From sequence record PZ256263.1: 64,000 nucleotides of DNA. One strand, 5' to 3'. Under the pieces are notes generated by a model. It was not told the DNA's origin. It saw only the letters and a list, made by a program, of their open reading frames with translations, and did no database searches. The translations under genes and the position numbers were made by a program. Source of the stretch: a phage. Of this stretch, positions 2,627-12,205 are shown piece by piece. Position 1 is the first letter of the stretch, and each line of letters opens with the position of its first letter.

Positions 2627-3820
2627 ATGTTTCCAGTAACATTAGAAGATACTGAAGGTAATGTTTTAACGGTCAACCCTCCTTGTTATGGGTTCCTTCA
2701 GCTTCGCAACTATAACGGTGGCGTTGATGAAGATGATGACGAAGATGAATACTTCGACCCTAACATGTATGAGGCAACTCATGGGTGGAATATGCACGTT
2801 CGAGTGTGGCATGAAGAAGCTAACGTTCGTAGTGCTGATGGGGAAGAGTTCCTGTTGAGCCGAGAGATGGATATGTGTAAAATCAAGCATATCTGGAACT
2901 CCGGAACTCACATGAAGATGTTAGGTTTTAGACGTTGGCGTGATGAAAAACCTGTATCCGCAGCTTTAGGTTGGGGTGCTATTGATTACGAAGGCGAGCT
3001 TAAAAACAACATTGAACGTTGGAATGACAAAAACCCTGAACATCGAACCACACCTCGTGCTGTACTGGAAGCTATGGAAGCATTTGTGGACAAAGATCGT
3101 CCCTCCTGTTTACGCTGGCACGATAAAGGTTTTATGGGGGTAGCAACTGAAAATGTTCCTGCTGATCGTTGTCTATTCTATTTGATGTTAGATCGAACCT
3201 TCTATTGTGAAGATGAAGAGAGTCAAGTTGAAACCTTCCTCCACAAATGGTTGGTTGAAGGCTGGACAATCCTTCAGTCTTATGTTTACTCACGAATGGT
3301 TAGCACTTACACTAACCTCTTGGGTGAAACGAAAGCAACTCTGGTTGGTAATGATTGGGATGCTTGTATCTTCCCAGCGTCACTATTTACAGTCGGCATG
3401 GCTGATAAATACGCTGAAGCATTTCAAGTGCCTTGGCGTCAACAGTCGTATAGAGACGGGTGTGGTCACTTCCGTGATGAAGACTTTAAGTGGATTCATT
3501 ATGAGAACGATGAAACAGCAGAATTGCGAGTTAACAACTCAATGTTCTTGCCAGTGATGCACCCCGATCTAGTAAAAGATGGGTCAGAGATACTTAAAGG
3601 TGATAATCTTTTGGTTAACTTTACCCGTCGCGTGTCTAAAAATGAGAGAACAGCTAACAGGCTAATCTACGGCATTCGTGCCGAGGCTAAAGACCTGTTC
3701 AACATCTACAACATTATTCAGCGATTTAGTAGTGGAACTCTGGACCAAAGTTCGGAGTATTCAGTGATTCCATCCTCTGAGTGGGATGGTATTATGAGCG
3801 GATTATTTTTAGGAAAATAA
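2627..3820 (+). CDS. hypothetical protein, first gene of amidoligase/GATase cluster
   Basis: Track ORF 397 aa; tightly packed with downstream genes; no recognisable motif. Confidence 0.6.
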   Translation: MFPVTLEDTEGNVLTVNPPCYGFLQLRNYNGGVDEDDDEDEYFDPNMYEATHGWNMHVRVWHEEANVRSADGEEFLLSREMDMCKIKHIWNSGTHMKMLGFRRWRDEKPVSAALGWGAIDYEGELKNNIERWNDKNPEHRTTPRAVLEAMEAFVDKDRPSCLRWHDKGFMGVATENVPADRCLFYLMLDRTFYCEDEESQVETFLHKWLVEGWTILQSYVYSRMVSTYTNLLGETKATLVGNDWDACIFPASLFTVGMADKYAEAFQVPWRQQSYRDGCGHFRDEDFKWIHYENDETAELRVNNSMFLPVMHPDLVKDGSEILKGDNLLVNFTRRVSKNERTANRLIYGIRAEAKDLFNIYNIIQRFSSGTLDQSSEYSVIPSSEWDGIMSGLFLGK

Positions 3821-3830
3821 AAGGTTAGTT

Positions 3831-4802
3831 ATGTCAATCTCCACAACGATCGTACCTCAGAATCTTCAACAAGATTTAGGGGAACAGAAGTTCTTAGGTC
3901 GTGGGTGCTTCGGTATTCACAACTACATGCAAGGCCAGTGTGTAAATGACATTAATGGTGAAGTTATCACGGAAGAAGGGCGCTATCGTCGCTTCAACCG
4001 CGATATCAACTTGCAACTGGAGATGTTGAATTACTGGACTCACTCTTTTCATGGTCATGTTGCATCCGATATTGAAAAGAACTTGATTGAAACAGCGGAC
4101 ATTATGAACTCTATGTCTTGCTATCGTGATGTATTTACAATCACTTCAGCGAACAGTGTTGCTGTCAATCTTCGTGAGCATCCAGCAGATCAGATCTTCA
4201 CAGGACTTATGCTCTTCCGTAGCATTCTGGAAGGGCAGTATCGTGGAATGGATTTCCTAGCAGAAGGAATTGAAGACAGGGAAGAGTGGCTGAAGCGTAA
4301 ACGCATCGGAATCGCTCTAGTGTTAGCTGGGTTAGGTCGTGACTTCTTCGGTGGGTGGTCTCAACGAGGAATAGCCAATGGGAATAGCGAGAGCACCTCT
4401 ATTGTTATTAATAACAATATGTCAGCAGCAGCATTCCTTCCTTTGGTTGTAGACTCTGATGAATACACGAAACAAGTATGGGTTCAAAATCCCTTCGGTG
4501 TTGGTGACAATGAGAATGGTTATGTTCGTAACCATAACCCAGAGGCCTTACGAAGATTTGCTCGTGCTAAAGATCAAGACCCAACTGAGTATGCAACAAT
4601 GTCAGAGTGGTTAAGACTCTGGTCCATCTGTTATGGTCACAAACGTGAAGCAATAGACGACAAGTTGGGAAACATTACAGTACAAAACTTTACAGCCCGA
4701 CTGATTCAAAGAACTGGAGCAGATTCCGGTCTTACTCTTGAAGAAGTTGGTAACACAATCTCATCTCTCTTTTCTGAACTAGTGGAGTATTACAATGACT
4801 AA
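3831..4802 (+). CDS. hypothetical protein (cluster member)
   Basis: Track ORF 323 aa; overlaps next gene start by 8 nt. Confidence 0.6.
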   Translation: MSISTTIVPQNLQQDLGEQKFLGRGCFGIHNYMQGQCVNDINGEVITEEGRYRRFNRDINLQLEMLNYWTHSFHGHVASDIEKNLIETADIMNSMSCYRDVFTITSANSVAVNLREHPADQIFTGLMLFRSILEGQYRGMDFLAEGIEDREEWLKRKRIGIALVLAGLGRDFFGGWSQRGIANGNSESTSIVINNNMSAAAFLPLVVDSDEYTKQVWVQNPFGVGDNENGYVRNHNPEALRRFARAKDQDPTEYATMSEWLRLWSICYGHKREAIDDKLGNITVQNFTARLIQRTGADSGLTLEEVGNTISSLFSELVEYYND

Positions 4803-5601
4803 GCGCAAATTCCTCATCGGCTCTGACCCTGAAATGTTCGTTCGTACTAACAACGGTATCATCACCTCTGTGGCTGGTCTGTTAGGCTGTTCTAAGGACG
4901 ATAAGATCACTCTGGCTAAGGATGTTCGTCTTCAAGAGGACAACGTACTGGCTGAGTTTGATATTGACCCACAGAGCGGCTTTGAAGCGTTTAACGATAA
5001 CATGCAACGTGGTATCGATCTCACCAACAATGTCCTGAACAAACTGGACATGGAAACAGCTCCGGGTGTTAGCTCTCACATCTTCACTGAAGAAGAGATG
5101 AAGACTTTCAATGAATCAGCGTTCATCTTCGGATGTACTCCTGATTTCAACGCTTTCACTGGTCAGAAGAATCCATCCCCGACTTCTCAGAACAAGGGGC
5201 TTCGTACTGCCGGTGGTCACGTACATCTTGGCGTAGTTGGTGCTTTGGATATCACCCTGCAAACTCAGATGATGCTGGGTGTGCTGTGTGACTATTTCCT
5301 GTCCCTCCCAGCAGTTATTATGGATAAAGATACTCGCCGTAAAGAACTCTACGGTAAAGCGTCTGCAATCCGTTATAAAGACTATGGTATTGAATATCGT
5401 TCACTGTCTAACTTCTGGATTAGTGATCGTGAAAACCGTAAGTTTGTTTATGATCAGGTTGACAAAGTTGTTCAGCAGTGTGATATGTCCACTCTGATGG
5501 CATTGCACTCTCGCCTTCCGATTGAGAAGCTTCATGAAATCATTAACGGCAACAACGTTAAAGAAGCGGACCAGCAGATCAAACTCCTTCAGGTAGCATA
5601 A
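4795..5601 (+). CDS. amidoligase-like (carboxylate-amine ligase) enzyme, paralog 1
   Basis: Track ORF 268 aa; motif series GSDPE ... LAEFDIDP ... GGHVHLG ... YGIEYRS parallels the series in ORF 6225-7328. Confidence 0.55.
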   Translation: MTKRKFLIGSDPEMFVRTNNGIITSVAGLLGCSKDDKITLAKDVRLQEDNVLAEFDIDPQSGFEAFNDNMQRGIDLTNNVLNKLDMETAPGVSSHIFTEEEMKTFNESAFIFGCTPDFNAFTGQKNPSPTSQNKGLRTAGGHVHLGVVGALDITLQTQMMLGVLCDYFLSLPAVIMDKDTRRKELYGKASAIRYKDYGIEYRSLSNFWISDRENRKFVYDQVDKVVQQCDMSTLMALHSRLPIEKLHEIINGNNVKEADQQIKLLQVA

Positions 5602-5610
5602 GAGGTTATC

Positions 5611-11529: not shown

Positions 11530-11552
11530 AGCCTCTTCGAAAGAGGAGGCTA
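11530..11552 (+). promoter_or_regulatory. stem-loop with GAAA tetraloop, not followed by a T-run
   Basis: tagcctcttc-gaaa-gaggaggcta directly after stop of ORF 11336-11521; possible processing or stability element. Confidence 0.3.
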
Positions 11553-11574
11553 GTTCGGATAAACTGGAGGTTTT

Positions 11575-11784
11575 ATGAAACATGAAAGATTAAGTAAAGC
11601 CATTGATTCTGTATGGGATGCTGGGTGTGTTATCTACCGAGAGCATCACTCATACGGACAAACCAGAATACTAATTCTTAATCCTTTCTGCGAGCAGTTG
11701 GGGTTAGAAGTGTTTGTAACAGGAGCCACTGATCAACAGTGCGCTTACATTGAAAACATCATGAAAGATTGGAAAGGTATTTAA
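11575..11784 (+). CDS. hypothetical protein
   Basis: Track ORF 69 aa; SD GGAGG upstream. Confidence 0.5.
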   Translation: MKHERLSKAIDSVWDAGCVIYREHHSYGQTRILILNPFCEQLGLEVFVTGATDQQCAYIENIMKDWKGI

Positions 11785-11785
11785 A

Positions 11786-12205
11786 ATGTCAGAAGTAATT
11801 TACGTAGCAACTTATGGTTCTCTTCGTCGTGGTCAAGCTAACTATCTAGTTAATGACCGAGCTGGTGCTAAGTCAATTGGTGAAGGTTGGACTGAAGACA
11901 ACTTCGATCTGTTCCGTTATGGTGGTTCCTACTTCCCAAGCATCTCTCTCGCACACAGCAATAACAATAAGCCTGTTCGTGTAGAAGTGTTTGCTACTGA
12001 CAAAGCAGGTCTGGAAGGTCCATACGATCGTCTGGAAGGTTACAATAAACGTAGCCCTGAAGATAGCTTCTATCAACGCACCCAGATTGCCGTTAAGCTG
12101 GACTCAGGTGAAACTGTTATCGCTTGGATTTATCACATTGACGAAGAACAAGATGTTCTGGTTGAATCTGGCGACTGGTCAGAGTATCTGAAAAGTGAAT
12201 CTTGA
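11786..12205 (+). CDS. gamma-glutamyl cyclotransferase (GGCT/AIG2-like) family protein
   Basis: Track ORF 139 aa; N-terminus VIYVATYGSLRRGQANYL matches the AIG2/GGCT YGSL-R-G signature. Confidence 0.6.
   Translation: MSEVIYVATYGSLRRGQANYLVNDRAGAKSIGEGWTEDNFDLFRYGGSYFPSISLAHSNNNKPVRVEVFATDKAGLEGPYDRLEGYNKRSPEDSFYQRTQIAVKLDSGETVIAWIYHIDEEQDVLVESGDWSEYLKSES

Follow-up and report, generated by a model that had tools for sequence, protein, structure and literature searches.

The phiEco32-type amidoligase cassette of a Kuravirus genome: a conserved seven-family core, a corrected gene start and a proposed role in glutamyl amide formation

The phage sequence record PZ256263.1 carries, at positions 2627-12205 of the 64,000 nucleotide (nt) stretch analyzed here (the window), a block of co-directional genes which, judged by sequence, is the amidoligase cassette of phiEco32-type phages; it is the same system, with no difference in kind. 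The conserved core of this cassette consists of seven protein families: the X2-like family, a COOH-NH2 ligase (CNL), the X3 family, an Amidoligase_2 protein (AML), a class II glutamine amidotransferase (GATase), an ATP-grasp ligase and a gamma-glutamyl cyclotransferase (GGCT). Pfam and the literature already list the cassette under the phiEco32 name; added here are the seven-family core with its X2-like and X3 members, the ATT start codon of the GATase gene, the exclusion of the embedded gp79 gene and the phage-only distribution. With a probability of roughly 0.55, the cassette assembles a glutamyl amide or peptide, and also amidates and trims it, on a small cytoplasmic metabolite that is conserved from host to host. 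The leading single candidate for the acceptor, chosen tentatively and by analogy, is a glutamate-containing cell-wall precursor.

Positions 2627-12205 match the Escherichia phages ev_rybdy3, NJ01, Paul and SGF2 with 94-98% identity over their full length, and match more than 60 further records over at least 80% of it. On sequence grounds the source phage is a Kuravirus of the Gordonclarkvirinae (type member phiEco32), a prolate C3 podophage. The cassette genes correspond one-to-one to phi32_88 through phi32_77, with about 97% protein identity for the two proteins that were compared directly, and Pfam describes PF14395 as "Phage phiEco32-like COOH.NH2 ligase-type 2", a family named for this phage group. 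PMC5498523 and PMC11945000 trace the cassette to Iyer et al. 2009 (Mol Biosyst) and Hardies et al. 2013 (J Virol). Known from computational work since 2009, it has been called the "peptidoglycan modification cassette" or "module", is kept in RIO-1, phiEco32, 7-11, PA11, tf, MR299-2, LUZ24, PaP3 and CW02, and has been hypothesized to modify the cell wall and prevent superinfection (PMC5498523, PMC10580990, PMC11945000, PMC11318856). A first reading of the window from its letters alone (the sequence-only reading) had described such combinations as computational predictions with no defined product, in agreement with these four accounts. The phiEco32, LUZ24 and RIO-1 cassettes hold the same five enzyme families in the same order as the window. 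Whereas published accounts of the phiEco32 type name these five enzymes, the core defined here also takes in X3 and the X2-like family, which is duplicated in the window, and leaves out gp79 and several small open reading frames (ORFs). The sole experimental hint found for the cassette comes from the Bruynoghevirus FJK.R9: in each of two independently evolved lines, the amidoligase and the GATase both gained missense changes (PMC11450229).

Conservation was assessed in 77 sources, which include the annotated loci of Pseudomonas phage Pa223, Salmonella phage 7-11 and Aeromonas phage LAh_9 and 72 IMG/VR loci retrieved by means of an alignment of COOH-NH2 ligases. Families were counted by iterative search of all stop-to-stop ORFs with each window protein. 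CNL was present in all 77 loci, AML in 72-75, GATase in 73, the ATP-grasp ligase in 69, X3 in 67 and GGCT in 60, while X1, X2 and the other small ORFs were found by direct search in 10. The same six large families emerged from an independent all-against-all clustering. The gene order is nearly invariant (a ~320-aa X2-like protein, CNL, X3, AML, GATase, in some cases DUF7195, ATP-grasp, GGCT), the AML and GATase genes are adjacent in nearly all loci, and the block usually lies just upstream of the primase/helicase. The recurrence of the same families in the same order in very different phages is far beyond chance. Co-occurrence of the cassette genes, which the sequence-only reading had proposed to follow among related phages, holds in distant ones as well. 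Bearers of the cassette range from phages of E. coli, Salmonella, Aeromonas and Pseudomonas to marine phages. Amidoligase matches were obtained in 303 phage records, most of them from Pseudomonas (120) and Escherichia (93), with further records from Aeromonas, Vibrio, Proteus, Salmonella, Porphyromonas, Cronobacter and Pseudoalteromonas. The cassette is among the most widely conserved multi-enzyme blocks of lytic podophages (Kuravirus, Bruynoghevirus, 7-11-like, Aeromonas, Vibrio and many marine phages).

Outside phages, 100,044 bacterial and archaeal species, each represented by one genome, were scanned with a pattern-based search, which reaches fairly close relatives only; 14 loci were obtained, all on short or metagenome-assembled contigs, and those contigs long enough to hold flanking genes show the same neighbors. 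The cassette is essentially phage-restricted, the phages identified are described as lytic, and it is neither a bacterial operon nor a prophage moron. An occurrence in archaeal viruses, which would speak against a peptidoglycan target, was considered for the contigs L086, L087 and L088, binned as Halobacteriales or Methanomethylovorans, and was rejected. Their G+C content of 32-44% and their ordinary, non-acidic proteins indicate that they are probably misbinned phage contigs. The Poseidoniales host assignment in PMC11706807 was made in silico only.

All ORFs named by the sequence-only reading are present on the + strand at the positions which it gave, and its calls of amidoligases, a class II GATase, an ATP-grasp ligase and a GGCT are borne out by profile searches; PHROGs agree for every gene. 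CNL matches PF14395 with 34.1 bits (cut-off 25, E 2e-8) and phrog_3815 with E 3e-118. In a set of 62 distinct sequences, more than 50 of its residues reach a conservation of 90% or higher, among them D11-P-E13, QEDNVLxE (47-54), H142-x-H144 and E200-Y-R202, and between phages of unrelated hosts the mean column identity is 39%, with 32 invariant columns. AML matches PF12224 (33.8 bits, cut-off 22, E 4e-8) and phrog_7469 (E 3.5e-158), and its conserved residues are G29-x-E31-x-E33-x-E35, H95-x-H97 and E186-F-R188. The window copies of both ligases retain the D/E-x-E, H-x-H and E-[FY]-R motifs conserved across the homologues of their families. The two had been described as paralogous amidoligases with a shared motif series. 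The series D/E-x-E, H-x-H, E-[FY]-R is present, but AML has THVH in place of GHVH, and paralogy is not demonstrable: BLASTP between CNL and AML gives E 3.4, and profile-profile comparison (hhalign) gives E 0.03-0.05 over ~25 columns around the R-x3-H-V-H motif. By these comparisons the likeness of CNL and AML is at the level of motif or superfamily only. Searches of the Protein Data Bank (PDB) with the CNL and AML profiles found no relative and no detectable similarity to PafA/Dop.

The N-terminal part of GATase matches GATase_6 (55.1 bits, cut-off 27, E 1e-14), and GATase_7 and GATase_4 match as well. Its gene starts with ATT; this codon is preceded immediately by an in-frame stop codon and, 8 nt upstream, by a strong Shine-Dalgarno sequence, AGGTGGA. 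At 7408-7413 the sequence is ATT-TGT, with the codon of the catalytic Cys directly after the initiator, so initiation at ATT would place the nucleophilic Cys at position 1 of the mature enzyme. The start at 7408 proposed by the sequence-only reading is right only through ATT initiation, while the automatic ORF listing starts at 7747. An initiator codon followed by Cys was found in 70 of 74 loci, with ATG in 62 and ATT in eight; the ATT-Cys loci are all the E. coli Gordonclarkvirinae and one unrelated contig (L022), in which the ATT start is of independent origin. The RefSeq record of phiEco32 carries the full GATase gene of 2031 nt. Many GenBank records (for example ev_rybdy3; PQ819470) show a truncated coding sequence that begins at an internal codon, has lost the catalytic Cys and is labeled GlmS. 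The GlmS label was rejected on a score of 43 bits against a cut-off of 381, a match confined to residues 2-194 and the lack of a SIS domain. The NCBIfam models GlmS, PurF, AsnB and EgtC match only the N-terminal domain, far below their cut-offs, and profile searches detected no synthase domain in any phage GATase tested. The C-terminal region of the window protein contains three Zn-ribbon-like Cys clusters with CxxC pairs from aa 439, 486/511 and 640. Among the orthologues (L002-L076) the number of such CxxC...CxxC modules follows the lineage, with none in marine proteins of 371-405 aa, one in proteins of 408-555 aa and three in those of C3 enterophages (586-845 aa). The spacer between the AML and GATase genes was searched for a regulatory RNA structure, and its fold was no better than that of shuffled sequence (z = -1.3).

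As a single sequence the ATP-grasp ligase stays below the Pfam cut-offs (RimK 0.009, Dala_Dala_lig_C 0.004), but a profile of 23 homologues matches the solved RimK/alpha-L-glutamate ligases 7qyr, 5zct and 4iwx with E 2e-9 to 9e-8 over ~205 positions. It matches phrog_2599 with E 7e-184, and aa 319-400 correspond to phrog_20552, which also exists as a stand-alone PHROG family. Residues K85, E157, R159, D229, E241 and N243 are invariant, and D229, E241 and N243 are the Mg-ATP residues. The protein falls below the curated RimK cut-offs, with 26.8 bits against 143.4 for TIGR00768 and 20.6 against 331 for PRK10446. MptN is among its NCBIfam matches, and CofF is another RimK relative that acts on a cofactor. 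GGCT matches PF06094 with 63.8 bits (cut-off 22.8, E 2.8e-17) and phrog_2520; its YGxL motif (Y10, G11, L13) and the catalytic Glu, E84, are invariant across 50 distinct sequences. Conserved residues were checked in 50-67 distinct homologues per family. Since the window copies of the ligases, the ATP-grasp protein and the cyclotransferase keep the residues conserved in their families, the cassette enzymes are expected, from sequence, to be active.

X1, X2 and X3 were listed by the sequence-only reading as three interleaved unknown proteins of 397, 323 and 205 aa. They are unannotated, with no match in Pfam, NCBIfam, PADLOC or PDB sequences, but they represent two conserved cassette families, one of them duplicated here. 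A jackhmmer search started from the 7-11 ORF ahead of CNL collected 54 ORFs from 44 loci, the window's X1 and X2 among them, and an X2-like protein lies immediately upstream of CNL in 44 of the 77 loci. Compared with this family by hhalign, X2 gives a strong match (E 1.4e-11 over 209 columns) and X1 a moderate one (E 1.7e-5 over 113 columns). The X1 motif VPADRCLFYLMLDR is shared with X2 (HPADQIFTGLMLFR) and has the common form [VH]-P-A-D-x5-L-M-L-x-R; D120, R130, Q219 and R233 of X2 are conserved across the whole X2-like family, and their equivalents in X1 are D180, R190, Q272 and R283. X1 and X2 are, by sequence, probable paralogues of one unannotated family. In a structural search of viral models, the X2 model paired with two uncharacterized proteins each of LAh_8 and GAP52 and with proteins of CVT22 and CW02. 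A papain- or transglutaminase-like protease, suggested for X2 by Cys and His invariant in close homologues, was rejected, for the wide family keeps only D120, R130, Q219 and R233. The predicted model of X3 (pLDDT 68) has an N-terminal beta-barrel, whose weak matches are mostly of the Tudor/SH3/KOW type. Its most conserved stretch, residues 84-127 (ESPDVGY...SWTHINPVRQRxKGLxGNKxR), is predicted to be disordered, a pattern in the model that is typical of segments which become ordered on a partner. The X3 family has 64 representatives in 1.84 billion proteins, almost all of them stand-alone and of 180-210 aa, and across this wide family only D6, Y11, P85, G88, R106 and G111, with no Lys or Glu, are conserved at 80% or more. 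Hidden copies of a ligase, an ATP-grasp protein or a GGCT were sought by hhalign, and X1, X2 and X3 showed no similarity to known enzyme families. An acceptor with an acidic C-terminus of the LysW, S6 or Pup type was sought within the cassette and was found in no cassette family.

The block ahead of the replication genes may encode a small cytoplasmic assembly line for glutamate amide bonds. From the chemistry of their families, CNL and AML would be two ATP-dependent carboxylate-amine ligases, in which a carboxylate is activated and joined to an amine. GATase would act as the glutaminase partner of AML and turn a carboxylate into a carboxamide, as in MurT/GatD or AsnB, or might alternatively hydrolyze a gamma-glutamyl amide, as does EgtC. 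By the same reasoning the RimK-like ATP-grasp ligase would extend a terminal carboxylate by an alpha-linked glutamate or a different amino acid, and the GGACT-type GGCT would remove the gamma-glutamyl group as 5-oxoproline and free the amine, a trimming or recycling step like that of BtrG in butirosin synthesis. The X2-like proteins and X3 could be phage-specific subunits or substrate-binding adaptors of a complex. As GATase has no synthase domain and its gene follows AML, the simplest reading of the two is an AML-GATase amidotransferase pair, and the missense changes in both genes of FJK.R9 count in its favor (PMC11450229). That CNL is so strongly conserved between phages with unrelated hosts suggests a small, invariant substrate. 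Among the targets offered by the sequence-only reading (a virion protein, a nucleotide or DNA base, a polyamine or a cell-wall precursor), the cell-wall precursor leads, and the DNA base is the least supported.

Glutathione synthesis and the gamma-glutamyl cycle (GshA, GshB, GGCT) share with the cassette a GCS-type ligase, an ATP-grasp ligase and a gamma-glutamyl cyclotransferase; the cassette adds a second ligase, an Ntn amidotransferase and two unannotated families, there is no NCBIfam match to GshA or GshB, and its ATP-grasp protein is RimK-like and not GshB-like. Amidation of the MurT/GatD and AsnB type likewise sets a glutaminase beside an ATP-dependent carboxylate-activating enzyme and yields a carboxamide. 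GatD, however, is a class I GATase and MurT a Mur-ligase, whereas the cassette pair, suggested by gene adjacency, would consist of a class II Ntn enzyme and a glutamine-synthetase (GS)-like Amidoligase_2. In ergothioneine (EgtA/EgtC) and butirosin (BtrJ/BtrG) synthesis a ligase adds a gamma-glutamyl group which EgtC, a GAT-II-like enzyme, or BtrG, a GGCT, later removes; the likeness is one of logic only, as the cassette contains no other enzyme of these pathways and no carrier protein, and the EgtC model scores 20 bits against a cut-off of 219. Among solved structures, the ATP-grasp core is closest to RimK, the poly-glutamate ligase of ribosomal protein S6, and to the alpha-L-glutamate ligases (E 2e-9), from which the cassette protein differs by its extra C-terminal domain and by the lack of a nearby gene for an acceptor ending in Glu. 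With the Pup system (PafA/Dop and Pup) the cassette has in common two GS-like amidoligases and a protein with a conserved, apparently disordered segment, but it has no C-terminal GGQ/GGE tag, and its ligases show no similarity to PafA/Dop in PDB profile searches.

Several points weigh against the preferred glutamyl-metabolite reading. The peptidoglycan idea rests on analogy; the published accounts are computational and report no product, substrate, phenotype or chemistry (PMC5498523, PMC10580990, PMC11945000, PMC11318856); superinfection exclusion makes little sense for strictly lytic phages; and the cassette is found in neither bacterial chromosomes nor prophages. Among the solved proteins nearest to the ATP-grasp ligase is the protein-modifying RimK, the two or three conserved non-enzymatic proteins and the Zn ribbons of GATase suit a macromolecular target at least equally well, and the Ntn domain reads from sequence as glutaminase or as amidohydrolase alike. 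Modification of a protein is weighed as a doubtful but serious alternative. The ligases would glutamylate or tag a host or phage protein, as in RimK-S6 or PafA/Dop-Pup, with GATase serving as deamidase and GGCT as eraser, and with adaptors or substrates supplied by X3 and the X2-like proteins. RimK/S6-glutamate ligases are the closest matches of the ATP-grasp profile, two GS-like ligases next to a conserved, predicted-disordered X3 segment recall PafA/Dop and Pup, the Tudor/SH3/KOW-type folds weakly matched by the X3 barrel are typically binding modules, and Zn ribbons are appended to GATase in 0, 1 or 3 copies. On the other hand, RimK relatives also act on cofactors, MptN being among the matches, no cassette family has a conserved acidic or Gln C-terminus comparable to those of S6, LysW and Pup, no Lys or Glu of X3 reaches 80% conservation across its wide family, and a small substrate that never varies is suggested by the extreme degree to which CNL is conserved among phages whose hosts are unrelated. 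A further version of a macromolecular target, which seems improbable, treats the seven families as one phage-specific multi-subunit machine, in which X3 and the X2-like proteins are new folds that recruit the target and a glutamyl or amide mark is set on protein or DNA. If true, such a machine would explain the restriction resistance and the broad plating range of the Gordonclarkvirinae and would be a new covalent modification system of phages. Rather improbable is a free metabolite in place of a cell-wall precursor, be it a glutathione-like compound, a gamma-glutamyl-polyamine or a rewired gamma-glutamyl cycle, which during infection would adjust the redox, polyamine or nitrogen pools of the host or act as a signal or inhibitor. 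Glutathione is made and broken down by just such a set of enzymes, namely a GCS-type ligase, an ATP-grasp ligase and GGCT; the combination of a GCS-type ligase and a GAT-II-like hydrolase follows the logic of EgtA/EgtC, EgtC being among the weak NCBIfam matches; and metabolic neighbors, nicotinamide phosphoribosyltransferase (Nampt) and phosphoribosyl pyrophosphate (PRPP) synthetase, occur in 7-11 and LAh_9. However, three ligases and two or three extra conserved proteins exceed the needs of such a pathway, the sequences contain nothing that identifies an acceptor, and the idea differs from the preferred glutamyl-metabolite reading only in the identity of that acceptor.

Hypermodification of DNA or nucleotides, with an amino-acid-derived group placed on a base, would account for the resistance of the Gordonclarkvirinae to restriction-modification, which the BASEL study found to be strong and without a known mechanism (PMC11990801). 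The cassette lies directly upstream of genes for primase/helicase, exonuclease, nucleotidyltransferase and dCTP deaminase, and in viral metagenomes genes for amidoligases and amidotransferases are found together with those for thymidine hypermodification (PMC8989533); sites of the tested restriction-modification systems are not avoided in the window (EcoRV 36, EcoRI 10, EcoKI 10, EcoP1 102). The adjacency to replication genes, however, is found throughout the phage lineage and may be a matter of ancestry and not of function, and 11 of 16 restriction enzymes cut the DNA of U17, a LUZ24-like phage that bears the cassette (PMC11945000). No cassette ORF belongs to a base-modifying family in Pfam or NCBIfam, the thymidine-hypermodification enzymes 5-HMUDK, aGPT-Pplase and dUMP hydroxymethylase having no match there in any of them, and the phage carries an ordinary ThyX and dCTP deaminase. 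Moreover, CCWGG and BamHI, PstI, KpnI and SacI sites are strongly avoided. The window contains two CCWGG sites against ~74 expected, none of the four six-base-pair sites against ~11 each, one NcoI site and 140 GATC against 241 expected, and this avoidance of CCWGG and of 6-bp palindromes indicates that the DNA is exposed to restriction. DNA modification is disfavored as distinctly unlikely. The notion that the block is not one system, and that unrelated early genes were merely inherited together, has in its favor the unrelated function of the embedded gp79 and the lineage-specific small ORFs; but phages that otherwise have little in common, some with different virion and replication modules, retain all this in the presence and order of the seven families, and overlapping starts and stops suggest translational coupling. 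It is largely refuted by the co-occurrence analysis and hardly probable at all.

Several cassette phages, for example the LUZ24-like Bruynoghevirus, are phage-therapy candidates, and identification of the product would explain a recurrent part of phage biology and probably reveal new ligase chemistry. Of practical use are the corrected gene model of the ATT-start GATase, the seven-family core, the two unannotated families and the lower priority of the DNA-modification idea.

The block at 2627-12205 comprises 13 tightly packed ORFs (Table 1). Neighboring ORF ends overlap by 4-20 nt or are separated by 1-10 nt, and the overlaps of starts and stops suggest translational coupling.

Table 1. Features of the amidoligase cassette in the window
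Feature	Position	Strand	Length (aa)	phiEco32 counterpart	Description
X1	2627-3820	+	397	phi32_88	Probable divergent paralogue of the X2-like family
X2	3831-4802	+	323	phi32_87	Unannotated family
CNL	4795-5601	+	268	phi32_86	PF14395, COOH-NH2 ligase type 2
X3	5611-6228	+	205	phi32_85	GTG start; core protein, always between CNL and AML
AML	6225-7328	+	367	phi32_84	PF12224, Amidoligase_2
Shine-Dalgarno AGGTGGA of GATase	7394-7400	+			
ATT initiation codon of GATase	7408-7410	+			
GATase	7408-9438	+	676-677	phi32_83	Class II Ntn/Cys1 domain, ~aa 1-270, and C-terminal region
77-aa protein	9441-9674	+	77	phi32_82	Pfam DUF7195 (PF23825)
74-aa protein	9655-9879	+	74	phi32_81	phrog_13464, lineage-specific
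ATP-grasp ligase	9882-11084	+	400	phi32_80	RimK-like core, ~aa 40-270; C-terminal extension, aa 319-400
gp79 orthologue	11091-11339	+	82		PDB 9m7y chain G
Small ORF	11336-11521	+	61		
Small ORF	11575-11784	+	69		
GGCT	11786-12205	+	139	phi32_77	AIG2/GGACT-type

The 77-aa protein encoded between the GATase and ATP-grasp genes matches PF23825 with E 4.7e-17, has the invariant residues P18, P49 and P51 and occurs in 23 of the 77 loci, including 7-11 and LAh_9, while the 74-aa protein was found only in 10 Kuravirus-like loci. The ORF at 11091-11339 matches PDB 9m7y chain G with E 1e-51. In phiEco32, sigma70 is displaced by gp79, which also activates gp36, the sigma factor of the phage (PMC12276001, PMC8948821). 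The gp79 gene is absent from 7-11 and GAP52, both of which bear the cassette, and is therefore a passenger and not part of the ligase machinery. The cluster range of 2627-12205 given by the sequence-only reading stands for the enzyme genes but includes this gene of other function. PADLOC gave no match that would relate the cassette to defense or anti-defense systems. In the relatives YF01 and PE006 an HNH endonuclease is inserted inside the cassette region.

A terminator-like hairpin followed by a T-run is found at 2054-2071 (+), ~180 nt upstream of a 120-aa ORF (2253-2615) that precedes the cassette, and may mark the start of the transcription unit. The gp36 promoter consensus TAATGTATA does not occur within positions 1-13000, which places the cassette upstream of the first middle/late promoter. 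Five exact copies of TAATGTATA are present in the window (21746 and 28763 on the + strand; 28702, 38595 and 55172 on the - strand), with 0.69 expected by chance.

Downstream of the cassette, a 456-aa "nucleotidyltransferase" is encoded at 14711-16081 (+) between the exonuclease and the dCTP deaminase; it has a weak match to the PolyA_pol head (0.002, below the cut-off). The authors of the BASEL study suspect the nucleotidyltransferase/dCTP deaminase gene pair of a role in DNA modification (PMC11990801). The DCD-like gene (16091-16624) and ThyX (19227-19883) are ordinary in appearance, and the replication block also contains an HNH_3 homing-endonuclease-like ORF at 17636-18130 (+). In Salmonella phage 7-11 (L003, 121-2684) and Aeromonas phage LAh_9 (L004, 15046-18184) the cassette lies near genes for PRPP synthetase and nicotinamide/nicotinate phosphoribosyltransferase (NAD salvage), a pair that is lacking in the window. 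EcoRV (36), HindIII (30) and AluI sites are over-represented in the window, and CAGCAG is four times over-represented.

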